From a virus (Duplodnaviria > Caudoviricetes): DNA of 52,845 bases. Shown here piece by piece: positions 130 to 52,845 of the stretch. Below the pieces are notes generated by a model. The model saw only the letters and a list, made by a program, of their open reading frames with translations, was not told the origin of the DNA and searched no databases. The position numbers and the translations under genes were made by a program. The stretch covers positions 1 through 52,845 of IMG/VR virus record IMGVR_UViG_3300025009_000138. One strand, 5' to 3'. How positions within the stretch are numbered: the stretch's first letter is position 1; each line of letters starts with the position of its first letter.

Positions 130-140
130 ACATTAGCCAT
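1..140 (-). CDS. 5' part of a 92-aa probable virion protein spanning the circular junction (continues to 52578)
   Basis: ATG at 140 gives MANVYDSHVWTLDTAAAISTGQVK..., in frame with the ORF ending at 52578. Confidence 0.8.
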   Translation of the reverse strand, partial: MANVYDSHVWTLDTAAAISTGQVKIRKLLWKPSAAGQSLAINEADG

Positions 141-375
141 TTACCTTCTCCTCTTTTACCGTGCTCTCTTCTTTACCTTTTTGAGCGTATTTCCACCCAA
201 GCGAGCCTAACAACATAACTATGTCAGTTGCACCAATTGCGGGGAGAGAACCAGAGCGAATAACAACACTAAACCATCCTATCATGTACACAAACACGAT
301 AAAAGTTACGACAACGCGCATTTGTGAACCATCGCCATTATTTTCAGTGAACACGCTCTTAACAAAAGCCCCCAT
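133..375 (-). CDS. Holin-like small membrane protein
   Basis: Two hydrophobic segments, charged C-tail, GGGGAG RBS before MGAFVK; lies next to lipoprotein genes. Confidence 0.55.
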   Translation of the reverse strand: MGAFVKSVFTENNGDGSQMRVVVTFIVFVYMIGWFSVVIRSGSLPAIGATDIVMLLGSLGWKYAQKGKEESTVKEEKVNG

Positions 376-422: not shown

Positions 423-659
423 CTATTTCACAAGCTCCTCTCCCTGCGTCGAACACCAAATGGCAACAATGGCCTGTGCCGCATCAAGCGTCCACCTGTA
501 CCGCTCGATCTGCTTTGCATTACCTGACACAACCGCCGCGTCATAAGCAACTTGAGCACTTGCAAGAGCCTTTTGCCCACTTGCACACTGAGTTGTCGAA
601 CACGCTGAAAGCCCTGCTACCAAAGCCAAGCACATTACCATACCTGCAATTCTTTTCAT
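423..659 (-). CDS. Lipoprotein (possible spanin-like or exclusion lipoprotein)
   Basis: MKR + hydrophobic stretch + lipobox LSAC. Confidence 0.65.
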   Translation of the reverse strand: MKRIAGMVMCLALVAGLSACSTTQCASGQKALASAQVAYDAAVVSGNAKQIERYRWTLDAAQAIVAIWCSTQGEELVK

Positions 660-805
660 TTAGATCCCCTTTCAATACAAATAAGTCTCTGAAAAGGCTC
701 CATAGGATTATGGGGCCACGAACACCCAAACAACAAAAACAATCCAATACCCGCCAAAACAAAGCAAGAGATAAAACGCTTCACAAGTCCTTTTCTCGTC
801 GCCAT
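656..805 (-). CDS. 49-aa lipoprotein (below ORF-track cutoff)
   Basis: MATRKGLVKRFISCFVLAGIGLFLLFGCSWPHNP...; lipobox LFGC, GAGGAG RBS, ATGA overlap with the next gene. Confidence 0.6.
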   Translation of the reverse strand: MATRKGLVKRFISCFVLAGIGLFLLFGCSWPHNPMEPFQRLICIERGSK

Positions 806-1039: not shown

Positions 1040-1060
1040 GCTTATCACCTCCTTTCGTTT

Positions 1061-1246
1061 TCACTTTTTGAGTAATAAAACGACAAGATTCATGATTACC
1101 ACAATCAACGTCAACACTACCCCCGTCATGGTTTTAGTTGCCCTGTCCCTAAGTATGTTTATCACCTCCCATTGCTCCTTATCCGAGCGTTCCAATTGAT
1201 CCAAGGTTGCGCACACTTTTCCGTGTTCTGCACCGCAATTTGCCAC
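1061..1246 (-). CDS. Coiled-coil protein with C-terminal TM helix (XhlA/holin-like)
   Basis: GGAGGTG RBS; heptad-like segment followed by GVVLTLIVVIMNLVVLLLKK. Confidence 0.6.
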   Translation of the reverse strand: MANCGAEHGKVCATLDQLERSDKEQWEVINILRDRATKTMTGVVLTLIVVIMNLVVLLLKK

Positions 1247-2195: not shown

Positions 2196-2199
2196 TTAA

Positions 2200-34821: not shown

Positions 34822-35580
34822 CTATGCAGTCCTTTTCCAAAAGTACACTACAATATAAGGAGGTAACTGATCTGTAGGCGTAGGGTCACTCGCCGGAACC
34901 GTGTTAAAAGACGCTGGATCGACTGGATGAGTATGTGTATCCGTTGCAACGGTCGTTCCTGCGCCTGCTTGAACCGCTACAGTAGCACTAGGAGCCCCAC
35001 TCACTGTACTAGGAACATCAATAGCATGAGCGTGCGTTTTAGCCCCACCTGTACCTTCCGCTATTCCAAAGTCTGGATCTGCCGCTAAATACCCTGCTAG
35101 CACACGCCCAGCACCAAACGCTGTCCACGTTCCATATTTCAAATACGTCGCTGGATTTGTGCCAGTAGTGTTTATCTCAATTGAGCCAATCGGCCTTTTG
35201 AGCAATCCAACAGCTTGTTGCACCAACTTATCAACCTGATCTAACGTGACATACTCATCACGCGCCACAGCTTTGTGTGACGCAACACGAAAATTGATAC
35301 GAGCCACTGAAGATCCGGTAGACCTATAAATGCTATGCTTCTTCAGCGCCCTACGTGTTACTATTTCATCGTCTGCTTTAAAGGCTCCAACATTACGCAG
35401 ACGTTTATTACCCATGTCAATATCCTTACCTTGCACAAAACTCAGCGCATCTGTTCCTTTTAACGCTGCTAACTCTGCGCTTATTTCTAAAAGCTGCCTG
35501 TTTAATTCAATAGTTAATTGTCGCAAGGAATTTATGGAATTATCAGAGGGAGGATTGATGTTGTAAAATTCTTTAGGCAT
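34822..35580 (-). CDS. Tail fibre-like protein with T4 gp10 C-terminal-like domain
   Basis: PIGSI....NPAT...GTW..FGAGRVL.G and LPPYIVVYFWKRTA. Confidence 0.75.
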   Translation of the reverse strand: MPKEFYNINPPSDNSINSLRQLTIELNRQLLEISAELAALKGTDALSFVQGKDIDMGNKRLRNVGAFKADDEIVTRRALKKHSIYRSTGSSVARINFRVASHKAVARDEYVTLDQVDKLVQQAVGLLKRPIGSIEINTTGTNPATYLKYGTWTAFGAGRVLAGYLAADPDFGIAEGTGGAKTHAHAIDVPSTVSGAPSATVAVQAGAGTTVATDTHTHPVDPASFNTVPASDPTPTDQLPPYIVVYFWKRTA

Positions 35581-38225: not shown

Positions 38226-38435
38226 CTAAGAAAAAATCTTACGCTGCCGAGTCGGTTTCATGGACGCTTTTTTTGGAAGCCCTTTTTCCGGCGTGCCCGC
38301 GAACTTCTCCAACGCTTGCATTGACATTTTGGACATCGCCGCTGCTGGTCCCTTCCCCGAAAGCGTCTTGCTCGCCTTCTTCGCTCCCATCGCTACTCCC
38401 GCCGCTTTCCTCTGCTGCTTCGATTTCGCTGGCAT
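38226..38435 (-). CDS. DUF3008-like small basic protein
   Basis: MPAKSKQQRKAAG.A...MS..LEKFA.T..KGLP; GGAGGTG RBS. Confidence 0.75.
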   Translation of the reverse strand: MPAKSKQQRKAAGVAMGAKKASKTLSGKGPAAAMSKMSMQALEKFAGTPEKGLPKKASMKPTRQRKIFS

Positions 38436-38559
38436 CGTTACATACACCTCCAATCATTTCACTCACCACGCGCACCGAGCACTTACCGCGTTCAGGCACG
38501 AAAATAGCACACTCAGCGGTACACTCAGTAAGCGCCCAAGGACACTTCATTCCAACCAT
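38239..38559 (-). CDS. Small Cys-rich protein overlapping the DUF3008 gene
   Basis: AAGGAGGT RBS; CP..C...C...C N-terminus. Confidence 0.45.
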   Translation of the reverse strand: MVGMKCPWALTECTAECAIFVPERGKCSVRVVSEMIGGVCNDASEIEAAEESGGSSDGSEEGEQDAFGEGTSSGDVQNVNASVGEVRGHAGKRASKKSVHETDSAA

Positions 38560-38599: not shown

Positions 38600-40456
38600 T
38601 TACGGCAAGTTCGCCCCAGCGATTGTAGCGCCGTCAGTCACACGCTGAAAGAGCATCGTAATCGTGGCGACACCTGCACCAGTACCCGCGTTATCGTCGC
38701 CATGGATGTACACAATCTTCCCTGGCTCCAAATACACAGGCAAGTAATCCGTGGTGCTGTCCTCTTCCGCGTTCCAAGAGACATTCGCACCAAGCCCAGC
38801 AGTCGCCTCCAAAATAATAGGCGCGGCAGCTCCCGTTTTACCTGCCGCATTATCCACGGAAAACTCAATGTTGGTAGGATTGGCGAGCCCCGTAGCGTCC
38901 GTATTAATGAACACGTTTACCAACACCAGCCCACCAGATGACGCACCCGTGATAGCGCCCGCGACTTGTGTATTGTTCGGAATGCTACTCGACGTGACAG
39001 AGGATGTTACCATCAAATACTCACCACTCTTACCCGCGTTCAAGTGCTCCAAGCGCTCAAACACAGAACCATCTCGATTCGACGCAACCGTGCCCGTATC
39101 CATCGCATTATCGGCGTCATTCACACCAATTGCGCCAAGCACAGAGGTTGCCGCGTCTACAGGAGTCGTACCGTTCGTACCCAACGCATCCACGAGCGAT
39201 TTACTGTCTGCGAGCTGCGTACCAAGCGCCGTACCGCCCGAAGCAACAAATCGCGCCAAAGATCCCGCAGTAGGATTTATCGGCAACGTAGCATCGCCAA
39301 TCGTGGTAGTATCTACAAGAATAGCAGCGATTTCCGTATCCAAAAAATCGTCAATCGTAGTAATCGCCGCATCTCGTGCAATACCCTCCGTGACGAGCTG
39401 TTTAATGTACGCCATGATGGTATCAGTGTTAGTGACAGCACCCGACGCCGCAGCATCCGTCAACGTACCCAACAAACTATCCGCTGGTACAATCTGTCCA
39501 CCTGTATCAATTCCACTTGAGTACAAGTTGCCCAAGCAATACATACTACCAGGATCAAGTGACGTGGCATACGCATTGGTGTACAAGCGGTTATCCACAA
39601 TCATACCTGTTGCCGTGCTTGTAAACTCAATCGCATGTTGCCCAGCAGTAGCGTTTGAGATAACGTTACGTGCAATGATCCAATCCAAATCCGCTTTATT
39701 AGACCAGATCCCCGACACCGCAAAGTTACCCCAAACGAAGTTATCGAGCACTTTCCATCCAACGTTTACACCCGTACCCGCTTCAAGAAAGTGATTCGTG
39801 AGGGATGTTGCGGCACCGTAATACGTACAGTTAATGATGGTGCCGTTATCCGCCCCACTCGCCAGATCAACTGCATCCAAAAACTCGAACGTGGCTGTGG
39901 TAGGTTTCGGGAAATCGCAGTTCTTCAACATGAAGTTATCCCCGCCAACCTCTACCGCAATGCCCTTCACGATATCGGAAATACCCGCGAGAAAGCGCAC
40001 ATTCTCAATCGTGACATTCGCGGCACCAACCGCAACCGTGGCATCCGTATCCGCAAACGTGAACGTGGGGCGATTCGCACCTTCTCCCAAGCCCACGATA
40101 CGCACACCCGCCACGTCTACATCAAAGCCATCCGCCGCCGTGAAGCTCTCCGCGTGCCCAGGCGCAACGAAAATGATGTCGCCATTACTCGCGGTACACC
40201 TTCCAATAGCATAGTCCAACGTGGCGAAGGGTTTATCATATGTTCCGTTATCCGCAGAGTCCCGCCGCGCCTCATGCCCGCTATCCACAAAGTACACATT
40301 CCCGGTAGTGGTATACTCCCCGCTGCCAATCTGAGGAGTACCAGCGGAAATCACCATGTCAAACGCTGTGGGTGCCGCGTACAACGCTGGAGTACCCAAC
40401 AGACATGCACACAACACACCGAGCCAAGCAACCTTCCAAACCCTAAGCTTCTTCAT
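38600..40456 (-). CDS. Beta-helix (pectin-lyase fold) protein with signal peptide
   Basis: YFVDS, PFATLDYAI, GDIIFVAPGH, NVTIENVRF; leader MKKLRVWK...ALYA. Confidence 0.75.
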   Translation of the reverse strand: MKKLRVWKVAWLGVLCACLLGTPALYAAPTAFDMVISAGTPQIGSGEYTTTGNVYFVDSGHEARRDSADNGTYDKPFATLDYAIGRCTASNGDIIFVAPGHAESFTAADGFDVDVAGVRIVGLGEGANRPTFTFADTDATVAVGAANVTIENVRFLAGISDIVKGIAVEVGGDNFMLKNCDFPKPTTATFEFLDAVDLASGADNGTIINCTYYGAATSLTNHFLEAGTGVNVGWKVLDNFVWGNFAVSGIWSNKADLDWIIARNVISNATAGQHAIEFTSTATGMIVDNRLYTNAYATSLDPGSMYCLGNLYSSGIDTGGQIVPADSLLGTLTDAAASGAVTNTDTIMAYIKQLVTEGIARDAAITTIDDFLDTEIAAILVDTTTIGDATLPINPTAGSLARFVASGGTALGTQLADSKSLVDALGTNGTTPVDAATSVLGAIGVNDADNAMDTGTVASNRDGSVFERLEHLNAGKSGEYLMVTSSVTSSSIPNNTQVAGAITGASSGGLVLVNVFINTDATGLANPTNIEFSVDNAAGKTGAAAPIILEATAGLGANVSWNAEEDSTTDYLPVYLEPGKIVYIHGDDNAGTGAGVATITMLFQRVTDGATIAGANLP

Positions 40457-40482
40457 GCGCTTACACCTCCTTTCTCAGGCGC

Positions 40483-41379
40483 TTAACCCGTGCTGCCGTA
40501 CACCCCACGAGGAGTAGCCACACCCTGGGTATGCCGCTGATACGCCGTCGCCACCGCGCTCTTCGTCCGGGGATCGTCAAAGCAATCGAAGATCGGATAG
40601 TCCCTCCACAAGAAGTTCAGGTCATGCTCCCCCTTCTCAGCGAGCGCGAACCATGCCGTCTGACTCGTGAAGTAGTGCCCGATGAACACTTTCAGATCCT
40701 CGTCCAGCAGCGCATTGATTTCATTTTGCGCCGTATAGGGCTTTCCACTCGAACCAAGGATTTCACGCGCCACGAACTTCTTGGCGTAGTGAATCGCAAT
40801 CATGGCAGGAGCCATTTGACGAGGCATGTTTCGCTCATCCGTCATGCCCTCGAAAGTGACGGTCATGTTCTGGAGTCCCGTGATACTGAGCCCGATTTCC
40901 GGGGAAGGACGATTCGCATACGTGGTAGCGTCGATACGAGCATGTGCTGTGTTGAAGAGCGTGCTCGCCGTAAAGCCTGCCGTAACCGAAGTGAAGCCAT
41001 TGTTCATCACAGAGAAAGCGTCCACTTCCTGACGATTCCGAGACGCCCGCGCAAGCCCCTTCACCATCTCCGCGAGTACGCCGTACAGCTCATCCCGCCA
41101 CGCTTCCCAGGAGATTTCCACCGCCAAGCCAAACGGAGTCGCTTCATACTGCTTCGTTCCGCCAATGAGAATTTCGTCCAGCGTAAACTGGCGCATTTCA
41201 TCCTTCGCTGGCATCGTACCCAGCCCTGACACTTGCTGATCGGTGACGGGGTTGTATTCCATTTCCGACACGTTGAAGATCATCGGGTGCTCAAGAGGAC
41301 GCTCCTTACCCGTTTCGTAGTACACTTTCCGCAGATCCGGCGCTATCAATGCCGCGATATACCCTCTGTTGATCGCCAT
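40483..41379 (-). CDS. Major capsid protein (HK97 fold, Mu gpT-like)
   Basis: 298 aa; GLGTMP..E, ISWEAWRDELYG, LFNTAH, NEINAL, TAWF, GVYGSTG. Confidence 0.85.
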   Translation of the reverse strand: MAINRGYIAALIAPDLRKVYYETGKERPLEHPMIFNVSEMEYNPVTDQQVSGLGTMPAKDEMRQFTLDEILIGGTKQYEATPFGLAVEISWEAWRDELYGVLAEMVKGLARASRNRQEVDAFSVMNNGFTSVTAGFTASTLFNTAHARIDATTYANRPSPEIGLSITGLQNMTVTFEGMTDERNMPRQMAPAMIAIHYAKKFVAREILGSSGKPYTAQNEINALLDEDLKVFIGHYFTSQTAWFALAEKGEHDLNFLWRDYPIFDCFDDPRTKSAVATAYQRHTQGVATPRGVYGSTG

Positions 41380-41447
41380 ACTCGCTAACCTTTCTTCTCC
41401 CCCCGGAAAAGTAGAACAAGTTCACAATACCTGCCGAAGCGTAACAA

Positions 41448-41942
41448 TTACGTGCGGCTGAAGATGGTGTAGTTCTCCTTGAACACAAACTTCACACGAC
41501 CGTTGAGCGTACCCACCGCGTCAATGAAATCGACGATGGTGACTTCGGGGGCGCTTGTGTCCGCCTTGTTGATGTACCAATTGAGCGTACTACCGTCCAC
41601 TTGCAAACCAAACGAAGAATACATATCCGTTTGCGCAATGACCGCTGATGCCGCACTTGCATGATGTACCTGCGCCTCGAAAACGACACCAGGCAAAGGA
41701 GGTACGAACTCCAACGATTGCCCGCGTGTGGTGTTCTTACCGTTTCTCTGCGCAACGCCCACGATTGTACCCGCCGCCATGTTCGCGGCACCCGTCACGA
41801 GATACCCAGCGCTTGAGCTTGCCCCACGCACAATAGGAGCACCCCTCTCAAACGTCTGACTCGCCCCTTCCAATCCCTTCAACATGGGAATGGAGGGGAG
41901 CCCAATCAACTCACTTACCTTGATGCTTTGCGTAACTGCCAT
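41448..41942 (-). CDS. Probable capsid decoration/cement protein
   Basis: Small beta-rich ORF (IVGVA, VVFEAQ) directly upstream of MCP. Confidence 0.6.
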   Translation of the reverse strand: MAVTQSIKVSELIGLPSIPMLKGLEGASQTFERGAPIVRGASSSAGYLVTGAANMAAGTIVGVAQRNGKNTTRGQSLEFVPPLPGVVFEAQVHHASAASAVIAQTDMYSSFGLQVDGSTLNWYINKADTSAPEVTIVDFIDAVGTLNGRVKFVFKENYTIFSRT

Positions 41943-41985
41943 TTTGCGTTACCTCCTTTGCTTATCCACGTTCTCTTCTTCTCAT

Positions 41986-42819
41986 TCAATACGTCACCAC
42001 TTGCACATTCTTACCGAACAAGTTGTCTCTATATTCTTCGTTCTCCGGTATCACCTCCTTCCATGTTTCGTCACCTATACGACGCGCGTGTGAAAGCCAT
42101 TCAAACATGATACGATTCTTAAGCCAGGGACGTTGTAGATGTTGCGGTTGTGGATGTGGAGCACGAAGCTCGAACATATCGTAGAATTGATCCTCAAAGT
42201 GCAGATCATCGTCATTTGGAATACCCCATTTAGAGGAGGGACACACCGCATCCATTTCTGTGCAACCCTTCTTCAAAAGCACCTTCCAACCAGCATCCGC
42301 GATACGCTCCTTCAGCAAAGCCTGTTCCACCAAACCCTTAACCTCCTGCCCTTCTTCCATACTCTGACAATAGAAAAACGCTGCATACCTTGCGCCTGTA
42401 TAATCGCGCCTATCCACACCAAGCTTACCATGCAAGTGCCCCACCCGACACAACATGCGCATTACAGGATACCACTGAAACAACGCCTTCACCGTGGGCA
42501 TAGTCACGACTACCTTATGACAGTATGTGCGGCAATACGCCGGGATGAACGAATGATCCATCAACACACTGAACAGCACATCCTTCCACAAATAACAATG
42601 CATATCCACGTTCACGTTCGGATGCGGCACGAATATCCAAGGACCGTCGAAGTAGCCCATAAGATTCTTTTGCTCAAACAGTCCTTCATCATTTATCGCC
42701 CACCCCTGCTGCATGAGTGTATGCACTCGATTCACCAAGTTACTGTTCCACCAAATACCCTTATCCCAACGTTCTTCAATGGACTTAGGTTTGAAGTTCG
42801 GAAAGTATTTCTCTAACAT
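41986..42819 (-). CDS. Hypothetical protein (CHKVVV...FFYC...KKGCTE)
   Basis: GGAGG RBS; no function assigned. Confidence 0.65.
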   Translation of the reverse strand: MLEKYFPNFKPKSIEERWDKGIWWNSNLVNRVHTLMQQGWAINDEGLFEQKNLMGYFDGPWIFVPHPNVNVDMHCYLWKDVLFSVLMDHSFIPAYCRTYCHKVVVTMPTVKALFQWYPVMRMLCRVGHLHGKLGVDRRDYTGARYAAFFYCQSMEEGQEVKGLVEQALLKERIADAGWKVLLKKGCTEMDAVCPSSKWGIPNDDDLHFEDQFYDMFELRAPHPQPQHLQRPWLKNRIMFEWLSHARRIGDETWKEVIPENEEYRDNLFGKNVQVVTY

Positions 42820-42850
42820 TCGCGTTCTCCCTCCGCGTTAAAGCGTCCTG

Positions 42851-43066
42851 TTAATCTACCACGTCCCAATCATCCGCAAACAAGTCCGACATTGAAGGCA
42901 CCCAAGGCACAATATCCCCTTGACTATTTTTAAGGCAAAGAATTTTCCTGCCAAAATCCTCACTATATCGCAACTCCGCATATTGATTAGGCCCATTCCA
43001 CCCACTTCGAGCAACCTTATTGCCACCCTTGAGATAGTTCAATGCTCCCTCAAACGAAAAAGACAT
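42851..43066 (-). CDS. tad2: DUF2829 / Thoeris anti-defence Tad2-like protein
   Basis: F..AL..LK.G.KVAR.GWNG and PWVPS.SDLFADDW. Confidence 0.85.
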   Translation of the reverse strand: MSFSFEGALNYLKGGNKVARSGWNGPNQYAELRYSEDFGRKILCLKNSQGDIVPWVPSMSDLFADDWDVVD

Positions 43067-43077
43067 AACACTCTCCT

Positions 43078-43857
43078 CTATTGCCCTACACCCAACCCAA
43101 GCACCGTCCCATCCTTCAACATCTTATCAAGCTGCTGTTGCGCCCCCATCCTCGCGTACAACTCCCTAGCACTCTCCTTGTACCCAGGCGCACGCTTTTG
43201 AATGAAAGCTATCCGATCTTCCGCTTGCTCCTCATCCAGCAACTTGATAGCGTTCCTCGTCTTGTTGTTTCGCTTGTTCTTCTCGTCCATCTCACGCACC
43301 GCATCCGTGGACTCCCCAGCTTGACGCGCACGCACCCATTCCTGATAACGTGCTTCCAACTCGCTACGATCCTTCAACCGGCGCATCAAGATAGTATCGC
43401 CCAACCGAATGTGCCCGTTCACATCAATCAACTCTTCCATCCCTCGCGCTTCAGGCATCGATCTGTCCACGATCTGCCACCCAATAGGCATAGGCCCGCG
43501 ATTGGTGCTCACCACAAGAGACTTGGACATATTGATCTGAAGCCCTCCATTGCCCGTGTACTCGTACTTGTAATCATACTCGTTCTGAGCATTCGGGATA
43601 GAAGAAGCGCTTGAAGCGAGCTGAAAACGAATCTCACGATCCGGTTCCAAAATACGCTCATCCACTTTGAACGCGCCTGTTTCGTTTGCAAGTGTCTCAG
43701 CGGCTTCTTCAAGAGTATCCTGACGTGCTCTCAACACTTCGTCTCGCTCGTGTCCGGGAGGAGGGAGCGCTGCTTCCGCCTGCTGTACGAGCGCATCATG
43801 ATTCTGATCCACGGTATCCACATCCAACAAACTCGGTTTCTTCTTTACGTCTGCCAT
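43078..43857 (-). CDS. Hypothetical head-module protein
   Basis: GAGGT RBS before MADVKKK; GWQIV...IRLGDTILMR. Confidence 0.6.
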   Translation of the reverse strand: MADVKKKPSLLDVDTVDQNHDALVQQAEAALPPPGHERDEVLRARQDTLEEAAETLANETGAFKVDERILEPDREIRFQLASSASSIPNAQNEYDYKYEYTGNGGLQINMSKSLVVSTNRGPMPIGWQIVDRSMPEARGMEELIDVNGHIRLGDTILMRRLKDRSELEARYQEWVRARQAGESTDAVREMDEKNKRNNKTRNAIKLLDEEQAEDRIAFIQKRAPGYKESARELYARMGAQQQLDKMLKDGTVLGLGVGQ

Positions 43858-43880
43858 GTTCTCTACCTCTCCCTCCTCTG

Positions 43881-44714
43881 TTAGTGCAAATATGCCTCGT
43901 GCTCTTTGCAATACTTCTCCCAGCTCTCGTACCCGCGATGACGCAGTTCATCTTCCACGGTGCGACCTTTATACCTCAACGCCTCAATTCCTTCTTTGCC
44001 CCACACATCTTCAGGCGTAGGAAGCTTTTTTGCGACTGCTTCATCATGCGCACTACGGAAAGCTTCACTCGCGTTCGTGTCTCCGGTGATCACACTCACT
44101 GTGGATTCCCGCAAAATCTTCTCGCGGTCAAGCTGCTGAATCTTCGCCAGATTCCTTCCGACCGCGATATCGTACGCTAGCTTCTGAGCGTCCGGAGAAA
44201 TCTGTGCAGCAGGCCCCATCTGCTGAAGCGCCGTGTCGATATCGTTCTTGAGGATATCGTAGTAGGGAAGCGTCGAGAGTTGTTGTTTCATGAGGCTTCC
44301 AATGGCTCCTACACCCGCCGTTTGGATCTGCTGAATATTCCCCAGCATCTCCCGACGCATACGCTCCTGATCCGCCTTGTGACGCTTCGAGATGATTGCG
44401 GCGGCTCCAGCTCCTCCATTCTCCACCGCTGCGTTATATTGCTCGTCTGTCACGTCCTCGATAGCGGGTAGCGTAGTAGTAGTGACGGTCTGCGCGGGTT
44501 GTTTTTCCGCACCCGGAGTCGCCACATTCGAGAGCGATTGAATCTGACTCATCAACGTGGTCTGGAACGCGCTGAATTGATCCATCGTGACGAACGTGGG
44601 CGTTGCAGGTGTTTGGGAATCGGCAAGCGTATCAGAAGGTTTTTGCTCCTCTACGCCCTGTGTCCCCGGATTCGTACTGCCTGCCAAGGTGTCTCTTTTC
44701 CTGCCGAAGAACAT
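43881..44714 (-). CDS. Probable scaffolding protein
   Basis: Helical, low-complexity N-terminus; lies between portal and capsid. Confidence 0.55.
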   Translation of the reverse strand: MFFGRKRDTLAGSTNPGTQGVEEQKPSDTLADSQTPATPTFVTMDQFSAFQTTLMSQIQSLSNVATPGAEKQPAQTVTTTTLPAIEDVTDEQYNAAVENGGAGAAAIISKRHKADQERMRREMLGNIQQIQTAGVGAIGSLMKQQLSTLPYYDILKNDIDTALQQMGPAAQISPDAQKLAYDIAVGRNLAKIQQLDREKILRESTVSVITGDTNASEAFRSAHDEAVAKKLPTPEDVWGKEGIEALRYKGRTVEDELRHRGYESWEKYCKEHEAYLH

Positions 44715-44937
44715 TTTGTCTCTCCTCTATCTCATTGATCTCTACAAAAGCTGCCAAGTCTCTTAACGCTTCCATCTTACCGTTTATCTGTAAAGCTTTG
44801 GCGTGAGACTCAACGATTACTTTATTCTGTTCTACCTGATACTGCAAGACACGATGCTCCAAGAACTTCTTGAAACTTCGCATTGCAACATCGTCCCTCT
44901 TCAAACACTCTAGCCACTCCAAATTTTCTGCATCCAC
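44632..44937 (-). CDS. Small helical protein downstream of portal
   Basis: Starts 3 nt after the portal stop; G..EALRDL motif. Confidence 0.55.
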   Translation of the reverse strand: MDAENLEWLECLKRDDVAMRSFKKFLEHRVLQYQVEQNKVIVESHAKALQINGKMEALRDLAAFVEINEIEERQNVLRQEKRHLGRQYESGDTGRRGAKTF

Positions 44938-44940
44938 ACT

Positions 44941-46914
44941 TTAATCTCCCTCTGTTGTAGTATTCTCGTTAGGTTCGCCACCATCTACTCCACCACCACC
45001 TAGCAAAGCACTCAAAGCTTCAGCAATACCTCCACCCTGCGCACCTTCTTCACCACCCTCCCCATTCCCTGCACCGACGCTCATACTTTGCACCATCTGC
45101 ACAAGCGACTGCAACACACCCTTATTCACTTGCAACGAATCGATTTCTTTATCCATCTCAATCACAAACGTTGCAGGATCGCGTATAGAGTCAAACGTCC
45201 TAAGCGCACGATCCACCAATTCACCCGTAGAGTGCGCAATCTTCTTGGCGACTTCCGCGACTTCTGGAGGTGTAGTAGGTTGCGCAGCGAGCATGATCAA
45301 CTCTACCGCACGCTGATAATACTGAGCGAGAGTGTTAAGCAATGCCATGTGATCTTGACGCTCCTGCATCTTATTCTGAGCAGCGCTTGTACTCGTCAAC
45401 TCCATTGGCACATTCTCGTCAAACTTGGGATCTGCGAGCATCATACACACACGCGCACCATCATCAGCACCTAGTACGTCAAGAATGTGCTGCATCACAC
45501 GTTGCTCACCTGCCATGATACGTTCTTGATAACGATAAAGTGCTTGCTTGACGGCGTTCCCTAAACACTTTCGCACGTCGTCAAATGCAGGAGTGAAGCG
45601 CTTGCTCACTTGTTGCATCATCGTAAGCGCTGTGATACCTGGAGTACGAGATCCCAATACCTGCGATGGACGAGGAGTGTTCATATCATTCACTCCAACA
45701 CGACGCTCACTCATACTAACCGTGGTTGCAAGAGCCTGCGCAACACCTGTATACTCACGCCCCATATCCGCTACTTCAACATCATTCTTAGGATCGGAAC
45801 AAAACGTTACTTTATTCGGGAAAATGCGCATATTCTCAGGCACGGAACCGTGTTTTGCGAAGTAATGCTTACAGTTGTTGATGATCGCCGCAAGTACCCA
45901 TTGATTGTACAACTCGGTAGCGCTCTCTTGAAACGGCTTAATCATTTCAAGTATTCCAATACCCCCGAATACGTGCGCCCTCTTTTGATAAAACATCTCC
46001 TCCACAGGGCGCCTATCATACGGATTGTACGAGAGCTTCAACACCTTTCGAGAGGTACGATCAAATACACAGAACAGATCCTCCGCAATCCCGTCTCCGT
46101 CAATATCAAAGAAAGGGTACACCTCAATGATTTCGTACAGATAATCATATCCTACACTTGAAGCAGCACGTCCTAGCGTTTCCCTTCTTTGCCGCACCCA
46201 ATCAATGTTGCCCGCTTTAGCAACGCGCTCGTTGTTATCTCCCAAGTCCCATTTATTCACCTTCGCTCTCCCCATCAACTCCTGTTCCGTCAACCAAAAG
46301 CGTATTCCTATCCATCGCATCTCCTGCAAGCTACGAGTGATGGACGGCGGACAAATCAAGTTCTCAATAGGCAACGAGCGAATCTTGGGACCAAATGACA
46401 ACACCTTCCGCGCTTTGTTCTTCTTCACAGTCTCCACAAACGGCACATACAACGCACCGCTACCAAGCTGAATATCGTCAAGAATGCTATCATCAGATGC
46501 TTGTCGTATATCCAACTCATTCGGCACCATCCAATCCACCCAACGCTGCATAGCTTTCTTGCTTTTCTCGGCATCCTCAGCGAGTAAATCAACCCCTTTA
46601 GGAACACTACGCACTGTAATGAAGGGATCTGCGCTGAAAATAGCGTCGATCATCTGCGCATACTGCACATCCGCGTAGATAGCCCCCAACGTAACCTCGA
46701 AATTTGGGGCATTCTCAATAGGCCAATCTTTGAACGGGAACTTTGGCACACCCTCATACAAGCGCATACACTCTCGCCACGTTTGCTCTAACACGTTACG
46801 AGAAGCGAAAGCATTTTCAATCTCTGTGGATATCCATTGCTCAAATTGTTGTATCGCGTCCTCACTAAAGGACGATACCACCGCTTTACTATGCACTTCT
46901 ACAATTTGTGCCAT
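44941..46914 (-). CDS. Portal protein (P22-like)
   Basis: 657 aa; W..C..LY.G, LGSG, DIDGDG, FGGIGI, T.TA, acidic tail. Confidence 0.85.
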   Translation of the reverse strand: MAQIVEVHSKAVVSSFSEDAIQQFEQWISTEIENAFASRNVLEQTWRECMRLYEGVPKFPFKDWPIENAPNFEVTLGAIYADVQYAQMIDAIFSADPFITVRSVPKGVDLLAEDAEKSKKAMQRWVDWMVPNELDIRQASDDSILDDIQLGSGALYVPFVETVKKNKARKVLSFGPKIRSLPIENLICPPSITRSLQEMRWIGIRFWLTEQELMGRAKVNKWDLGDNNERVAKAGNIDWVRQRRETLGRAASSVGYDYLYEIIEVYPFFDIDGDGIAEDLFCVFDRTSRKVLKLSYNPYDRRPVEEMFYQKRAHVFGGIGILEMIKPFQESATELYNQWVLAAIINNCKHYFAKHGSVPENMRIFPNKVTFCSDPKNDVEVADMGREYTGVAQALATTVSMSERRVGVNDMNTPRPSQVLGSRTPGITALTMMQQVSKRFTPAFDDVRKCLGNAVKQALYRYQERIMAGEQRVMQHILDVLGADDGARVCMMLADPKFDENVPMELTSTSAAQNKMQERQDHMALLNTLAQYYQRAVELIMLAAQPTTPPEVAEVAKKIAHSTGELVDRALRTFDSIRDPATFVIEMDKEIDSLQVNKGVLQSLVQMVQSMSVGAGNGEGGEEGAQGGGIAEALSALLGGGGVDGGEPNENTTTEGD

Positions 46915-46921
46915 TCTGACA

Positions 46922-47647
46922 TTATCCTTTATGAGTGTTACTTTTCGCTAATAGAGCATCCAGCGCTCGACGCTCTTCACTATTTTTTAGGTGCATCGGA
47001 GCCCACATGGCCACCCCGCCGAATTTGAGCCGCCGGATCTCCGCGATCTGACGCTCCATATTGGGCAACCACGCGGCATCTGATTTTCGCCACCTCGGAT
47101 CAGTGTGGGTAACGATGCCCATAAGCGTCTTCCTGAGTTTGACAGGCCCCAGGTTGTAGCGCTCCGCGAAGTCCGCGAAGTCCAGCCGCCCCTCTTCGCT
47201 CCGGTACAGCTCAGGGGAAACCAGATCACAGAACCGATACAACATGGAAACGGTCCCTGAGTCGTTGTTGACCGTGGCATTTCCAACCCAAACATGGACG
47301 AGCTTTCCAGGACACCGCACTCGAAACTTCTTGAGCGCCTGTTTCAACTTAGCAAACCGCTCGGGCGTCAAAGTCCCAAGCAAGATTTCGTCCAGACTCA
47401 CACCGTCGCACTCGCCCTGCGCTGCCGCGATCATGGCATTTCGGAGCACACCGTCCTCGTCAAGCATCGTGTTGGCGTAGACAGTATGGAGAATTTTCTT
47501 TCCCTGGTCGCGCCTGAATTTCTTCTGTGTATCACTTCCCTGAATAGGGAGAATCGTCACGATATCGACACTCTCCATGTCCCATGGCTCGGTAATCATG
47601 GGCTGTTGCTCGTACCTTTTGGGCCAGCAGTACGATAGGACTTGCAT
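46922..47647 (-). CDS. Possible TIM-barrel glycoside hydrolase-like protein
   Basis: DGVSLDE, DLVSPELY, FGGVAMW. Confidence 0.4.
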   Translation of the reverse strand: MQVLSYCWPKRYEQQPMITEPWDMESVDIVTILPIQGSDTQKKFRRDQGKKILHTVYANTMLDEDGVLRNAMIAAAQGECDGVSLDEILLGTLTPERFAKLKQALKKFRVRCPGKLVHVWVGNATVNNDSGTVSMLYRFCDLVSPELYRSEEGRLDFADFAERYNLGPVKLRKTLMGIVTHTDPRWRKSDAAWLPNMERQIAEIRRLKFGGVAMWAPMHLKNSEERRALDALLAKSNTHKG

Positions 47648-47657
47648 TCGATTCTCC

Positions 47658-49016
47658 TCAATTCATACTGACGTAGCGCATCCAGTCCCACAGTGAACTT
47701 ATGATTATGGGACGATGGGCCGGTGGAATGGTGTAGACTATTACGAGCTTGGGCCGGTTTTCTGCCGTTGCGTCGTCTGAGGTAGAAAACTGGTATGAAT
47801 CGTCTGTTTCTGTGTCAGCTTTTATAAGCCACCCATTCCCGAGATCTAATCCGAACTTTGTGGTGGGGGTAAGGGCGAAATTTTTAAACTCATTTAACGT
47901 TTCAGTTGACGAAAACGCCCGTGAGCCAATATCTGTTTGTTCGCAGTCGTCAGTATGAAATGCCCCAGCCGTTGACCAGTTACTTGCCGTGGCCCAAATA
48001 TTCCATGTCACTTCCGCTTCAACCCATGCCCTTTTCAACCGATAAACTCTAAACGTCCTGGCATTTGACGAGTAATCCGTAACGGCATAAAGGCTAAGTG
48101 TAGTAGACGATATGATAGCATTTGTGGGCAAAGTAGAGAGATCGAATTTAATAGCTGACCTATAAACTGTCGATCCAGTATTAAACTCTCCCACATGTAT
48201 GGTAGTTGCCGATCCATAATTAGTGCTCGGAGCAACATCCAAAAAAACAGCATCATACCCTGCCCCGTCCGGTTGAAGCGTCAATGTAGGATCGACCACA
48301 GGCCGATTCATTCCCGTGAGATCCGGTAGCGTGAACAGGATGTAATGCTGGCCGTCCACGCTCACAAACTGATTCGTGATCTTCCGAACATCTCCAGGAT
48401 TGGCAGCATCATAGGCTACGGGAGCCCGCAGAACCGACACGACTTTCTCTCCATCCTTGATGAGCGTCCCCGAGCGAGTAAGCCCTTGCAGCCCAACCGG
48501 AAAGGCGAATTGCCCATCCCTTGGGAGCCACCCACCAAGAAGCTCAATGTCCAGTTTCATGAAATGGCCGGCGTGAACGATGGAGAGAAGCGCGTTCGGG
48601 TTCGTCCATGTGAGTTTGTTGCCGGCTTTCGTTGGCCCGGTGAACGCCGGTTTGATCCACATACCAGAGGCGTTCTTTACGAGCGGAGCGCCAATCTCCA
48701 TGTACTTCGAGTCGTCACCCGGAATAGGGTATATTCGCCGCATTCCATCGGGCGCCATTTTAACTCTGAGCTTCGAGGTCGTAACGACGTTGGGAAATTC
48801 GGCATCTCCATCGCTCCAGGCCGTTGATATCCGCTGAAGCTTCCCTTGCGCGTCCTTGAAAGCAATAGGGGCACTGTGAATCGTGGTTCGATACTGACCG
48901 CCGCCAATCGCTTCCGTCTCCGAAAACTCACCGGATATCTCGGGAGCAGCTAGAACCGGAAAGGTGAGAAGCAGGCAGAAAAGAAATGCTAATCCGTGCG
49001 CGTAAACTCGAAACAT
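47658..49016 (-). CDS. Signal-peptide protein with DNRLRE/CBM96-like domain
   Basis: Leader ...FPVLA; VVDPT, TNYG, RSAIKFDLS, WVEAEVTWN, NGWLIK, RPKLVIVY. Confidence 0.75.
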   Translation of the reverse strand: MFRVYAHGLAFLFCLLLTFPVLAAPEISGEFSETEAIGGGQYRTTIHSAPIAFKDAQGKLQRISTAWSDGDAEFPNVVTTSKLRVKMAPDGMRRIYPIPGDDSKYMEIGAPLVKNASGMWIKPAFTGPTKAGNKLTWTNPNALLSIVHAGHFMKLDIELLGGWLPRDGQFAFPVGLQGLTRSGTLIKDGEKVVSVLRAPVAYDAANPGDVRKITNQFVSVDGQHYILFTLPDLTGMNRPVVDPTLTLQPDGAGYDAVFLDVAPSTNYGSATTIHVGEFNTGSTVYRSAIKFDLSTLPTNAIISSTTLSLYAVTDYSSNARTFRVYRLKRAWVEAEVTWNIWATASNWSTAGAFHTDDCEQTDIGSRAFSSTETLNEFKNFALTPTTKFGLDLGNGWLIKADTETDDSYQFSTSDDATAENRPKLVIVYTIPPAHRPIIISSLWDWMRYVSMN

Positions 49017-49606
49017 ACCGTCGCTCCTGTAATCGTTGCCGCCGCGTCCACGTTCACCACGTACCAGTCGCCCGCCGCGCCCGCCGCTTCGCCGGCATCG
49101 AAGCTCGTAATTTCAAAGTAGTTGTCTGCCGAAGCATCGGCTATGGCCGGTTCGGTTGCCGTGTCAAATGGGCTGTCGGCGTCGGTCAATGCTGCCAAGC
49201 CAGTGGTAGCCCCTGGAGCATCCACCCATATATCTATGGTCATCGAACCGACCACCGCATATGTCGTAAGGATGACCTTTGTCAACGTATGCGGGAACGT
49301 TACCTCGAAAGCCGTATTCCAGTGCGTCCCGGTAGAAATTGCGGCAACATAGTCCCCAACAGGAACACATGCCACCACGGAAGTCGTCGATGATGTAAGT
49401 TTGGCCACTGGCACCGATGCTGCCGTGAGGACCGACCCCTCCAGGGTATCGTTGTCCGTTCCGTCTCCGGCCACTCGATCAGGATCAAAGTCGTTGCTGG
49501 TAGCCGACTCAAAATCCGAGCTCGGCCCGATCTGGACAATGGTCGCGGAGAAACACGTTGAGGCAATAAGACTCAGGCAAAACAGGAACACCAATATTTT
49601 CTTCAT
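48989..49606 (-). CDS. Signal-peptide acidic beta-sandwich protein
   Basis: MKKILVFLFCLSLIASTCFS leader; AGGAG RBS. Confidence 0.65.
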   Translation of the reverse strand: MKKILVFLFCLSLIASTCFSATIVQIGPSSDFESATSNDFDPDRVAGDGTDNDTLEGSVLTAASVPVAKLTSSTTSVVACVPVGDYVAAISTGTHWNTAFEVTFPHTLTKVILTTYAVVGSMTIDIWVDAPGATTGLAALTDADSPFDTATEPAIADASADNYFEITSFDAGEAAGAAGDWYVVNVDAAATITGATVCFEFTRTD

Positions 49607-49631
49607 GTTCATTCTCTCCTTTGACATTACC

Positions 49632-52487
49632 TCAGTTCAAAACTGCCGCGAAAAAGTTCTGTGCAACCACATCCGCACCATTGGCACACTCGCCGGTAAA
49701 CTTAAGGGCCTTTGCTCCGCTTATCGCTTCCGTGGCCGCGATGCCCATATAGTTGGTATCGCCGTCTGCATTATGGAATGTGCCGTACATCATTTGCGTG
49801 GCCGCGCCAGTCACCAGGATAAATCCCCTAAACCACCAATCCCCTTCAGTGGTCGTTCCAGAGAGCAACGTAAAAGCCGTGGTCCCGAAGTACAATTTGA
49901 TCGTGTGGTTACCCGCCGTGCCGGTAACCGTGCCGGTTGCCTCGATATCAATCTTTGAATCCGTTTTGAGCATCGCCGCCGTAAGCGTCGTGGCAACCAT
50001 GAGGTTGTCTTCGCCGGTGCCAGAGCTTGGAACAGACGTCACGGATTTATACCAAGTCCTGCCGCCAATATACGACTTCTCCGCCAAGTTAGGCCGCAGT
50101 AGTCCGCCCGTAACCGTGGCGCTGCTCAGTGACCGATCAAGCGTGATCGAGCTCGGCTCCCCCGTCGTCGCCACTTCGCGGATGATGGCCCAATCCGTCG
50201 TTACGCCGGCCGCGTCAAGAAAATTGGCGGCGGCAAAGGCTCCATTTGCAACGGCCCCGTCCGTGTCGATCTGGATTGCCCTCCCAACCGTAAGCCCTTC
50301 CTTGGCCCCGGCACCATCCCCAGCAACAACGGACATTGTAAACTCACCGTTGGTAATAGTTCCTTCACTCCAGTCCTGTAGGGCGTCGGGTTGCACGTCT
50401 CCGGGCTCGACTCCATTAAGGTCAACGAGTGATCCCGAGCCGGGTTCGGTGGCTTGCCATCCAACTAACCCCCCGGAATTCGCCTTGGTCGGATCATCGT
50501 TTAGAAAGACGTGCCCCTTTGGAATGACTCTTGTGTAATTGGCCCCGTCTCCAGAACGATCAAGCGTAATTCCAGGGTGGAGATGGTCCTGAATGTCAAG
50601 CCTTGAAAGGACGGACTGAGACGCGATGTGAATTTGCTTTGTTACGGTGTCATAATCCAAATCAAGCTTTGGGAGTTTGTTCCCTCTGAACGTCCCGTCA
50701 GAAGGAGCACCGCTGAACTGAAACATATAGCCGACGTATGCCGGGGCCGTTGCGCCCTGGTAACTCAACAACTCGCAACCCTGAACATTGAGCGCCGTTG
50801 CATCTTTGAGGTATGCGATATATCGTTTGGACGAATATGAGAAATGCTGTCCGTAAAGGTTCAGTATAGTGGAATAATAACCGTCGCCATTGATTCGAAT
50901 ATGAGCATCCCCACCGTCCGAATCCCCATTCGATTCCCAATAATGAGAACCACCAATAATGGTCACCATCTGCCCAAATTGCGCGCTCAATCCATAGCCA
51001 GTGACCGGAGAGGAGTAGTTACCGGCGTATCTACCACAAAGCTCAATCCAGCAGTTTATCAGGCTGAGGTTGTCACCGTAATATTCCGCATAGATTCCGC
51101 CCACGTTACACGTACTGATTTTGCTGTTCTCTAGCGTTGTTCCATTCCACTTCCCATAGGTCTTCATCCCCCATTTTGCCGTCGAGATCGTGAGATCTCG
51201 AAGCTTGGCGTAATAGAGATCATTGGCGATGTAGATGCCGGTTCCAAAACCGATAATGCTTACGTTCTCAATTTTCGCAGACTTGGCGTTGTAGAAATTC
51301 AATCCCACCGTTAAAGGATTGGTCTCGTTGTCCGGCGTAGCGTCCCCAGTGGTGTACGGTCCCGAGAGTCGAATTCCGGTGATGGCCCCCGAGAAGTCCA
51401 GGTTGCTCCCGTCCCCGTTTCTGAAATCAATCGCTGTTCCTGTACCGGTGTATTTGATCTGCCCGCCACCCCCGCCAGTGACCGTATTGAACGTTCCAGT
51501 CTGTGAGCTGCCCACATGCCCACGAAGCCATATGGGATAGTTCGTTGTTCCGTTGTTCGGCCATATCAACGTGGAAGCGATCAACGAAACTCCATTATGA
51601 TCCAGAATGCCGCCCGTTGCAGGGAATGCGTCTAGGGCGCACTGCCAGGCGTTGGCGTCGTCTTCCGTTCCGCCAAAACCTGGCCCAAACATTTCAGGAT
51701 AAATCACAACAGGATCAGCGAACACCACTCCACCTGGTTGTGTACTAAATAACTGACGATTCTCGTATTTTACAGATGCGCCAAAAGTAAATGTTAAAAT
51801 GTTAGTGGATGTTGAAGTAAGTATAGCATTCGGAAGAGCGCTATACACCATTTTTGCTGGGACTGTTCTTGGAGCTGTGAGCGCTTCAGAACGAGCAAGA
51901 ACTATTTCAGATGCAGGAGGAGCATTAGCAATAGCACTCTCAAAAGATCCATACGCCTCTGTGGATACTACCCCACCAGACCTAAGATCCTCTACAGCAG
52001 TAATCGCCGCTCCACTCGTGTCCACACGCATTAAACGCACTGTGTAGGAAGGTGTTACAGGCTCGGCAGCACCCGCTACCATTTCAGCGAATACTATATG
52101 CGTTGCGCGTGTTACAGTAGCTCCTGCAATCGTTATTGTACGCGCTGAATCGTAGTCAGCGTACACATATGTACGAGTGGAGGCTGTGTACGTATGCGAA
52201 AAAGCATCCTTATATACGTAATATCCGCCAGGAAACGCAGTAAGCGCGGAGATTGTATGCGCAAGGGTACCGGATGTTGCGCCTATGCCTCCTTGAAGAG
52301 TGTATCCTGAATATTTCTTTTGAAAGCGTGCAGCATTCTCACCTTTAAGAAAAGCTTGCAGAGTGGTAAGGAATGTGGAGTCACTTACGGGGAGAGTATT
52401 AATTGTTTGAGTTGCGCCCCATATTAATGAAGCAGTTAGGAAGATTACAATGAAAGATTCTAGGATGCGCTGCCGCCATGTTTTCAC
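49632..52487 (-). CDS. Tailspike-like beta-helix protein with hydrophobic leader
   Basis: PEMFG..G.EDDANAWQCALDA pectate-lyase-3-like start, beta-helix repeats; N-domain ending ITAVEDLR. Confidence 0.75.
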   Translation of the reverse strand: MKTWRQRILESFIVIFLTASLIWGATQTINTLPVSDSTFLTTLQAFLKGENAARFQKKYSGYTLQGGIGATSGTLAHTISALTAFPGGYYVYKDAFSHTYTASTRTYVYADYDSARTITIAGATVTRATHIVFAEMVAGAAEPVTPSYTVRLMRVDTSGAAITAVEDLRSGGVVSTEAYGSFESAIANAPPASEIVLARSEALTAPRTVPAKMVYSALPNAILTSTSTNILTFTFGASVKYENRQLFSTQPGGVVFADPVVIYPEMFGPGFGGTEDDANAWQCALDAFPATGGILDHNGVSLIASTLIWPNNGTTNYPIWLRGHVGSSQTGTFNTVTGGGGGQIKYTGTGTAIDFRNGDGSNLDFSGAITGIRLSGPYTTGDATPDNETNPLTVGLNFYNAKSAKIENVSIIGFGTGIYIANDLYYAKLRDLTISTAKWGMKTYGKWNGTTLENSKISTCNVGGIYAEYYGDNLSLINCWIELCGRYAGNYSSPVTGYGLSAQFGQMVTIIGGSHYWESNGDSDGGDAHIRINGDGYYSTILNLYGQHFSYSSKRYIAYLKDATALNVQGCELLSYQGATAPAYVGYMFQFSGAPSDGTFRGNKLPKLDLDYDTVTKQIHIASQSVLSRLDIQDHLHPGITLDRSGDGANYTRVIPKGHVFLNDDPTKANSGGLVGWQATEPGSGSLVDLNGVEPGDVQPDALQDWSEGTITNGEFTMSVVAGDGAGAKEGLTVGRAIQIDTDGAVANGAFAAANFLDAAGVTTDWAIIREVATTGEPSSITLDRSLSSATVTGGLLRPNLAEKSYIGGRTWYKSVTSVPSSGTGEDNLMVATTLTAAMLKTDSKIDIEATGTVTGTAGNHTIKLYFGTTAFTLLSGTTTEGDWWFRGFILVTGAATQMMYGTFHNADGDTNYMGIAATEAISGAKALKFTGECANGADVVAQNFFAAVLN

Positions 52488-52577: not shown

Positions 52578-52845
52578 TTACGCGAAGTAAACGTAGAGAT
52601 ACCCTCCCGCCGTCAACGTAGCAAGAGTTATTCCATCAAACCACTGACCCTCAACAAAATCAAGCTCTTGCTCACCAGCGGGCGCAGCAGCACTAGACGT
52701 AGCAGTCCAAATTTCTCCACCATCCGCTTCGTTTATTGCAAGAGATTGTCCAGCAGCAGAAGGCTTCCACAATAACTTACGTATTTTGACTTGGCCTGTT
52801 GAGATAGCGGCGGCGGTATCCAATGTCCATACATGCGAATCGTAT
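52578..52845 (-). CDS. 3' part of the 92-aa ORF starting at 140
   Basis: Frame is open to the window end and joins the left end. Confidence 0.8.
   Translation of the reverse strand, partial: YDSHVWTLDTAAAISTGQVKIRKLLWKPSAAGQSLAINEADGGEIWTATSSAAAPAGEQELDFVEGQWFDGITLATLTAGGYLYVYFA
52717..52845. repeat. Terminal direct repeat, copy 2
   Basis: Matches 1-129 with one mismatch. Confidence 0.95.

Follow-up and report, generated by a model that had tools for sequence, protein, structure and literature searches.

Why would a tailed phage put export signals on proteins of the tailspike type? In the textbook view, tailed phages are put together entirely in the cytoplasm, and their spikes and fibres lack such signals. 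The question is raised by a complete virus record from IMG/VR, IMGVR_UViG_3300025009_000138, whose 52,845 bases were all analysed and are called the window below. It belongs to an uncultured, short-tailed phage with a long late operon. Four minus-strand open reading frames (ORFs) in this operon begin with leaders that resemble secretory signal peptides. A first-pass annotation had proposed that their products are exported and join particles only at or after lysis, or that they remodel or mask the host surface. In our analysis the leaders proved to be real, conserved and attached to proteins of the receptor-binding protein (RBP) or tailspike type. Joining of particles, as proposed, is possible but doubtful, and several results favour the host-surface option. 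We give about even chances to the reading that the four are exported glycan-active proteins, which act on the host envelope late in infection.

Export leaders and their inheritance

The four ORFs run from 40456 to 38600 (618 amino acids, aa), 49016 to 47658 (452 aa), 49606 to 48989 (205 aa) and 52487 to 49632 (951 aa, with a GTG start). As the first-pass annotation had described, each begins with a basic, a hydrophobic and a small-residue part; starts and N-termini were confirmed. An AGGAG-type Shine-Dalgarno site lies about 8 nucleotides (nt) upstream of each start. True starts downstream of the leaders were ruled out, since any start codon found there lacks a Shine-Dalgarno site. Codons 2–45 of the ORFs at 49016 and 52487 contain no ATG, GTG or TTG. 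The ORF at 49606 has alternative start candidates at codons 5, 6 and 45 only, none with a ribosome-binding site, and the ORF at 40456 has some inside its leader and others at codons 34/35, all of them lacking a Shine-Dalgarno site.

The predicted leaders comprise 27, 23, 20 and 24 residues in the 618-, 452-, 205- and 951-aa proteins, respectively. The net charge of the n-region before the hydrophobic core is +4, +1, +2 and +2 in the same order. The core, read from the sequences, is uncharged and 12–13 residues long in each leader, and the best 9-residue Kyte-Doolittle windows score 2.7–3.2. Cleavage is predicted between LYA and AP in the 618-aa protein, VLA and AP in the 452-aa protein, CFS and AT in the 205-aa protein, and after G24, before ATQTINTLP, in the 951-aa protein. 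The residues at positions −3/−1 are thus L/A, V/A, C/S and I/G, and −1 is A, S or G throughout the relatives. The RR of a twin-arginine translocation (Tat) motif is found in none of the four leaders. This anatomy suggests predicted signal peptides of the Sec type, cut by signal peptidase I (SPase I), and is suggestive rather than scored. The calls were made by a hand-made rule, which asks for charge, a hydrophobic core free of charges and small −1 and −3 residues, together with conservation in relatives. The rule flags 7 of the 77 mechanically called ORFs of the window, namely the four studied here and three others. Two of the latter are short (48 and 53 aa) and lack a Shine-Dalgarno site; the third extends the serine recombinase at its N-terminus, ahead of a catalytic domain that starts at residue 134.

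The leaders recur in relatives of all four proteins (all counts include the window's own protein). In the 618-aa beta-helix family a leader is present in 86 of 119 relatives with complete N-termini, drawn from the best 120 of 245 matches, and one more was recognised by eye. All 15 listed relatives in the 951-aa N-terminal family carry one (one of them called by eye), always ending just before A/D/E-TQTINTLP; the window's copy is encoded by 24 codons at 52416..52487 on the minus strand. Leaders were also found in 18 of 27 representatives of the 205-aa family, two of them lipoprotein-type with a lipobox, and in 11 of 117 relatives in the DNRLRE family of the 452-aa protein, where one of the 11 resembles a membrane anchor. 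Leaderless homologues number 31 of 117 in the 618-aa family, 106 of 117 in the DNRLRE family and at least four paralogues in the 951-aa family. Leaders are kept in the window's own clade of each family, and homologues that lack them form separate clades.

In three families the leaderless relatives begin, after their methionine, at or within about three residues of the predicted cut column. The leader therefore acts like a detachable N-terminal unit, and proteins with and without it share one mature N-terminus. In trees computed after removal of the leader columns, the leader state requires 3 changes in the DNRLRE family (n = 104), compared with 10–11 in the ten printed shuffles of 200 run, and 9 changes in the beta-helix family (n = 117), compared with 23–31 in 200 shuffles. 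As judged from these trees, the leader state is heritable and yet was switched repeatedly, by gain or loss. Hydrophobic N-termini arising by chance were ruled out by the conservation in relatives and by this clustering of the leader state. A copy of the 618-aa protein that is 94% identical overall (in L003) shares only 16 of the 27 leader residues, counted by eye, and keeps charge, core and cut pattern. This leader diverges faster than the rest of the protein while retaining its anatomy, as real signal peptides do.

Could the N-termini instead be uncleaved membrane anchors, or hydrophobic segments with another role? The hand-made nature of the rule leaves some room for this, as do the L or I at −3 in two leaders and a Glu at position 10 of the 951-aa leader. 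However, even divergent relatives keep a small residue at −1, the N-termini of leaderless relatives fall at or beside the predicted cut, and leaders of 20–27 aa with cores of 12–13 residues are short for a stable membrane span. We consider this explanation very improbable, the least probable of those weighed here.

Folds and gene neighbourhood of the four proteins

The 951-aa protein (49632..52487, minus strand) is predicted to be exported and is tailspike- or RBP-like. Its leader (1–24) is followed by a helix (34–58), a shoulder-like beta-sandwich (about 60–170), a beta-helix from residue 172 and a variable C-terminal part; the Beta_helix family (PF13229) matches residues 395–487. A model of residues 1–330, with a mean predicted local distance difference test (pLDDT) of 80, contains the leader helix, the second helix, the beta-sandwich and the start of the beta-helix. 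The structural neighbours of residues 47–175 are the cyanophage A-1(L) tail fibre (Z 7.5), Bordetella phage Mtd (6.8), the RBPs of lactococcal phages p2 (6.6) and 1358 (6.5), the HFTV1 tail fibre (6.1) and TssK. With Z scores of 6.1–7.5, all below 8 and so in the range where likeness can reflect a common arrangement, a role in particle attachment is only hinted at; we regard these modelled matches as a coherent hint, not proof, of an RBP attachment domain, for which no partner on the particle was identified. In BFVD the neighbours of the protein are tail fibres and RBPs, nine of them at E ≤ 0.001. Across 18 aligned family members the first 150–170 residues or so are conserved and everything C-terminal is swapped.

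The first-pass annotation had suggested folding the mature domains as trimers. Three copies of residues 25–330 of the 951-aa protein gave a homotrimer score of 0.89, while the best of three controls scored 0.00. In calibration, 20 of 30 proteins with solved structures of one-chain pairs attained the mark, as did 1 of 23 whose structures are single chains. The runs agree in at least 83% of contacts, with partner pLDDT of at least 86, although the pass may reflect likeness to the many solved RBP trimers. The protein is therefore described here as a predicted trimer. In the trimer model residues 25–35 sit in the subunit interface.

These features raise the question of whether the protein ends up on the particle. 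The 951-aa trimer, and perhaps the 618-aa protein, could be RBP parts that fold in the periplasm and dock at lysis, when the inner membrane is breached. We hold this to be possible but doubtful, and the same tentative weight applies to the wider idea that accessory RBP trimers, exported by Sec and trimmed by signal peptidase I, would dock at lysis in an extracytoplasmic last step of tailed-phage assembly. The N-terminal domain with its matches to RBP and fibre attachment domains, the BFVD neighbours, the conserved N-terminus before a variable C-terminus, a mature N-terminus that is the same with and without a leader, and the predicted homotrimer, with the caution given above, are all in line with docking. 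However, none of the shoulder Z scores reaches 8, and since residues 25–35 lie in the trimer interface, the conserved N-terminus is explained without a dock on the virion. Moreover, WceF of Pantoea stewartii, described as an exported, trimeric, tailspike-like beta-helix glycanase, keeps a P22-type N-terminal head-binding domain with no virion (PMC7949094).

The 618-aa protein (38600..40456, minus strand), likewise predicted to be exported, is encoded 26 nt downstream of the gene for the major capsid protein (40483..41379, minus strand; PF25209). Its model (pLDDT 81) shows a beta-helix (50–320), a long helix of 35 residues (347–381) and a C-terminal beta-sandwich (480–605). Foldseek neighbours are the tail fibres of phage 7-7-1 (2.8e-9) and the Fri1 gp49 and Kp32gp38 spikes; other structural neighbours are rhamnogalacturonan lyases, pectate lyases and GH136. 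Members of the family also carry a repeated motif after the beta-helix (about 390–475), with the consensus SLA.F.A.GGT.LGT.LA.SKS.VDA.GT.GT...D.A. Its copy number differs among relatives, and model confidence is low in this part (pLDDT 53–66).

The 452-aa protein (47658..49016, minus strand), predicted to be exported, consists of a leader (1–23), an N-terminal domain (24–260) and a DNRLRE/CBM96 domain (260–426). The latter matches NF033679 with 82.2 bits against a cut-off of 34, PF24517 with 50.2 against 26 and PF06848 with 51.2 against 33.9. The N-terminal domain resembles domains that precede CBM96 in bacterial and viral proteins. The 205-aa protein (48989..49606, minus strand; predicted exported, leader 1–20) has a C-terminal domain of about 125 aa; counterparts of this domain form the C-terminal ends of larger proteins, which mostly bear leaders. 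Taking the beta-helix neighbours (tailspikes, lyases, GH136) and the DNRLRE/CBM96 match together, we class all four as carbohydrate-type proteins. Pfam and NCBIfam scans gave no peptidoglycan-hydrolase domain in any of them. PHROGs holds no family for three of the four and one, of unknown function, for the DNRLRE protein. No meaningful E-value came from sequence searches against solved structures. The first-pass annotation proposed a beta-sandwich for the 205-aa protein. For the other three proteins its fold labels held up: a beta-helix in both the 951-aa (PF13229 and model) and the 618-aa protein (model), the latter directly behind the capsid gene; a tailspike architecture for the 951-aa protein, with shoulder-like domain, beta-helix and predicted trimer; and DNRLRE for the 452-aa protein, with all three family scores above their cut-offs.

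Three of the four genes form a cassette between the terminase and portal genes. Bases 1–129 of the record return as its last 129 (52717–52845), with 128 of 129 positions identical. The map is therefore circular or carries a terminal redundancy, and this terminal direct repeat connects the terminase block with the cassette. Read on the minus strand across the repeat, the order is terminase nuclease, a 61-aa protein with a C-terminal membrane helix, a small basic protein, two predicted lipoproteins of 49 and 78 aa, a membrane protein of 80 aa with two helices and a small protein called p81, followed by the leader-bearing 951-, 205- and 452-aa proteins, a leaderless GH18-like protein and the portal. 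The SU10-type portal (44941..46914, minus strand; PF23899, E 4.5e-21) is the downstream border of the cassette. Gaps of 5–28 nt, or overlaps, separate the four genes from the portal, capsid and neighbouring late genes, and tie them to the portal and capsid genes as late genes.

This close packing bears on whether the four could be ordinary lysogenic-conversion morons, expressed from the prophage and altering the surface of the lysogen. Secreted morons within late operons are established, lambda lom and bor being examples, and the phage is probably temperate because it encodes a serine recombinase. However, the short gaps leave no room for promoters. A consensus scan for sigma-70-type sites, which may not be those of the host, detected nothing promoter-like immediately before any of the four starts, and the terminator-like minus-strand sites of this region lie only within coding sequences. 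Leaderless orthologues moreover fill the same slots in sister phages. We therefore think it quite improbable that the genes are morons of this kind.

The same terminase-to-portal cassette is present in relatives whose portals are 41–48% and capsid proteins 48–66% identical to those of the window; gene calls in these loci come from our own simple caller. It encodes four leader-bearing proteins in L067, in the complete G405 and in L071, where an Amidase_2 gene follows, at least two in L057, and one each in L068 and L069. L006, L014 and L072 have, in the same slot before the portal gene, a tandem pair of paralogues of the 951-aa N-terminal domain without leaders, a point in favour of docking. A small lipoprotein gene abuts or overlaps the first of these paralogues (L006 14603–14920, L014 17394–17780, L072 457–741). 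Such a gene lies directly upstream of every leaderless 951-type pair and before no leader-bearing version.

A capsid gene followed by a beta-helix gene, leader-bearing or not, was seen in 15 of 55 related loci, and this too fits docking. Among close relatives, however, with capsid proteins in the identity range given above, the capsid-adjacent protein flips between leader-bearing and leaderless or is replaced: in L069–L071 and G405 the slot holds proteins with no detectable similarity to the 618-aa protein. It is leaderless in L067, whose four cassette proteins all bear leaders, and the idea that one genome carries the leader on every family member was ruled out by this case. A further argument for docking is that the sole leaderless fibre candidate of the window is short (252 aa; 34822..35580, minus strand). 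This protein lies in the tail module, begins MPKEFY, contains a Gp10_C domain (PF21939, E 3.3e-18) and matches PHROG tail and tail-fibre families. With this query it was matched in one of five relatives' records, so that no conserved hub for docking is evident. The cassette has between one and four members, lies among lysis-like genes and is distant from the tail module; nor did the literature searched yield such a route for a tailed phage.

Its position suggests another role for the cassette, as a set of exported lysis helpers. Secreted early, like signal-peptide endolysins, the proteins would cut an additional wall layer that escapes holin, endolysin and spanin, for example a sheath, a capsule or S-layer glycan. 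The cassette is embedded between lipoprotein and membrane-protein genes on one side and the GH18-like protein (Amidase_2 in L071) on the other, and no recognised endolysin or holin family was found among the window proteins scanned. Sec-exported endolysins are an established precedent, as for Lys44 of phage fOg44 (review PMC6116005). The missing peptidoglycan-hydrolase domains speak against this role, as does the 618-aa gene, which belongs to the head module and lies outside the lysis block. In addition, the modular RBP-like build and hypervariable C-termini suggest strain-specific recognition of glycans rather than a general lysis enzyme. On balance we judge the lysis-helper role improbable.

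Possible action at the host envelope

If the four are exported glycan-active proteins, they would be made late, with cleavable Sec-type leaders, cross the cytoplasmic membrane and have their leaders trimmed by signal peptidase I. Folding would then take place outside the cytoplasm and yield mature proteins that bind or cut glycans, put together from receptor-binding modules of phages; the 951-aa protein would act as a trimer. Their site of action would be the periplasm or the cell surface, on envelope polysaccharides of the infected cell. Receptors would likely be destroyed or masked, and capsule or slime loosened. The benefit would be that progeny escape and do not re-adsorb to debris and that rivals are kept out, and for none of this would membership in the particle be required. 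Export is the simplest reading of leaders that are conserved, heritable and precisely placed.

Envelope action without incorporation is favoured for several reasons. The cassette differs among relatives and is placed with lysis-like genes, outside the tail module, which has a leaderless fibre candidate of its own. The capsid-adjacent protein changes its compartment among close relatives. The trimer interface explains the conserved N-terminus, and WceF keeps a head-binding-type domain of phages without a virion.

Other results weigh against envelope action. The L and I at −3 in two leaders are tolerated but not typical. Conserved N-termini with swapped C-termini and a shoulder-like fold are the pattern expected of a particle-bound RBP. 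Leaderless orthologues fill the same slots in the sister phages L006, L014, L042 and L072, so export may make no difference to what a protein does, and its task could be one in the virion. Exported and cytoplasmic forms do not differ in cysteine parity: even counts occur in 45 of 86 leader-bearing and 20 of 31 leaderless members of the 618-aa family, and in 6 of 11 and 48 of 106, respectively, in the DNRLRE family. There is therefore no sign of adaptation to an oxidising compartment. Neither catalytic residues nor a substrate were identified for the four proteins, and "outside" may mean periplasm or medium, depending on the host.

How do the window proteins compare with known systems? A full-text literature search returned no paper on Sec leaders in tail fibres or spikes of tailed phages. 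With P22 gp9-type spikes, the lactococcal p2 and 1358 RBPs, the cyanophage A-1(L) fibre and the fibres of Agrobacterium phage 7-7-1, the window proteins have in common a trimeric build, predicted for the 951-aa protein, an N-terminal shoulder-like domain, a right-handed beta-helix and conserved N- with swapped C-termini. The known proteins are made leaderless and assembled in the cytoplasm, whereas those of the window have Sec-type leaders. Also unlike known phage spikes, three of them have their genes in the interval from terminase to portal, in lysis-like surroundings, and all four are at most putative parts of the particle. Outside phages, chimeric fibre proteins of Bdellovibrio resemble phage tail fibres and are reportedly exported to the surface. 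The cell uses them to recognise other bacteria, and they are encoded by bacterial genes of a predator, not by phage late genes (PMC10769870). WceF is alike in being an exported trimeric beta-helix with a tailspike fold and a phage-type N-terminal domain outside a virion, but has a Tat signal and is encoded by a bacterial gene in an exopolysaccharide cluster, whereas the window proteins are Sec-type, lack the twin arginine and belong to phage late genes (PMC7949094).

Sec-exported and signal-arrest-release (SAR) endolysins, such as Lys44 of phage fOg44 and P1 Lyz, are likewise late phage proteins that cross the membrane by host Sec before lysis (PMC6116005). They are described there as peptidoglycan hydrolases, in contrast to the four proteins studied here. 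A viral NosD-like beta-helix protein with a predicted signal peptide was reported from alkane-oxidising enrichment cultures, and roles in adhesion, lysis or cell-cell contact were weighed (PMC13452462). It shares the viral beta-helix and the predicted signal peptide, but stands on a single contig beside dockerin and S-layer genes, and the available text of that report describes no pairs of leader-bearing and leaderless orthologues, no cassette and no RBP shoulder domain. Porphyromonas phages also have genes with SPase I signals, which were read as host-envelope modifiers (Matrishin et al. 2023, PMC10367356). The genes in question, for capsid, spanin and unknown products, conform to the Bacteroidetes Q rule, and the available text names no tail or receptor-binding parts among them (PMC10367356). 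New here are the precise position, in three families, of the junction that sets leader-bearing orthologues apart from leaderless ones, the repeated switches of leader state, the lysis-flanked cassette and the negative cysteine-pair result.

In contrast to the taught view, the window encodes a set of spike-like, sugar-binding late proteins with export signals and with leaderless twins in sister phages. The leader trait has been inherited over deep divergence and gained or lost repeatedly. If the proteins are secreted enzymes, receptor-destroying or capsule-loosening secretion before lysis would be routine, which would change views of release, halo formation, exclusion and biofilm spread. If they dock, the outermost parts of the particle would be added outside the cytoplasm, a new route of assembly. 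With a host in culture, both readings could be tested directly on these pairs of orthologues with and without a leader.

Host and genome layout

Matches in the phage collection comprised one record for the 618-aa protein (an uncultured Caudoviricetes), two records of Bacillus phage SP-15 for the DNRLRE protein (E 8e-4) and one record for the portal at 23.6% identity; none of these queries gave a useful cultured relative. The relative L057, a 49.5-kb contig (C36 of genome G001), is syntenic over the whole late operon and was binned in a metagenome-assembled genome titled Dehalococcoidales. Among the 401 genomes searched of that class, the portal is present in one, namely that of L057. Since the portal is in none of the other 400 genomes, the bin was treated as unproven and perhaps wrong. 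Hints of a peptidoglycan-bearing, perhaps two-membrane host come from the Amidase_2 of L071, the small lipoprotein genes and the shortness of the leaders at only 20–27 aa.

The leaderless 241-aa protein between cassette and portal (46922..47647, minus strand) is predicted to be a GH18-like TIM barrel, with Atlas GH18 clusters at a template-modelling (TM) score of 0.77–0.80 and no Pfam match. Because it occupies the slot of the Amidase_2 endolysin of L071, it is a candidate for the endolysin slot and may, as far as the fold match goes, be an unusual endolysin. On the other side, five tightly packed small genes, each with a ribosome-binding site, occupy 133–1246 on the minus strand. The 61-aa protein with a C-terminal membrane helix (1061..1246) directly follows the terminase nuclease gene, and look-alikes of 91–92 aa stand at the same place in L067 and L069. 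A Lys/Gly-rich basic protein is next, followed by two predicted lipoproteins with lipoboxes called by eye, of 49 aa (656..805; LLFGC) and 78 aa (423..659; GLSAC). The fifth, an 80-aa protein (133..375) with a Shine-Dalgarno site and two hydrophobic stretches seen by eye, is a holin-like candidate by inferred function. The group looks like a lysis or envelope block; the scans made gave no match in it to known holin or spanin families.

Between this block and the cassette lies p81, a small, conserved, leaderless protein of about 92 aa (52578..52845, minus strand). Its gene crosses the record-end junction, with a start codon beyond the end repeat at about position 140 on the minus strand. Copies at the same place in L067 (3367–3657) and L069 (2623–2913) are 71–73% identical, while the portals are about 48% identical; the copy in L071 (576–857) is only 29% identical.

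The end repeat is present although the source classes the record as linear without end repeats, and leaves about 52,716 bases of unique genome. The window encodes the serine recombinase, a helix-turn-helix candidate for the small terminase subunit, a large terminase split in two, a replication block on the plus strand and the long late operon on the minus strand. Besides the SU10-type portal and a capsid protein of the HK97 type by Pfam, two adaptor-like proteins, the Gp10_C fibre candidate and large leaderless downstream proteins are encoded; no tRNA was found in the window. The large terminase consists of separate ATPase and nuclease genes in the window (1276–3411) and in all four relatives whose terminase region was examined (for example L006 6264–9470, L067 20–2196, G405 40769–44832). 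The small ORFs between the two halves differ, and the insert in L067 is a homologue of a 138-aa late protein of the window (36802–37218). Very basic, Lys/Gly-rich proteins of 50–75 aa recur in the late operons of this lineage, both after the terminase block and after the capsid-adjacent gene (window 869–1048 and 38226–38453, L067 2743–2895, L068 3625–4015).

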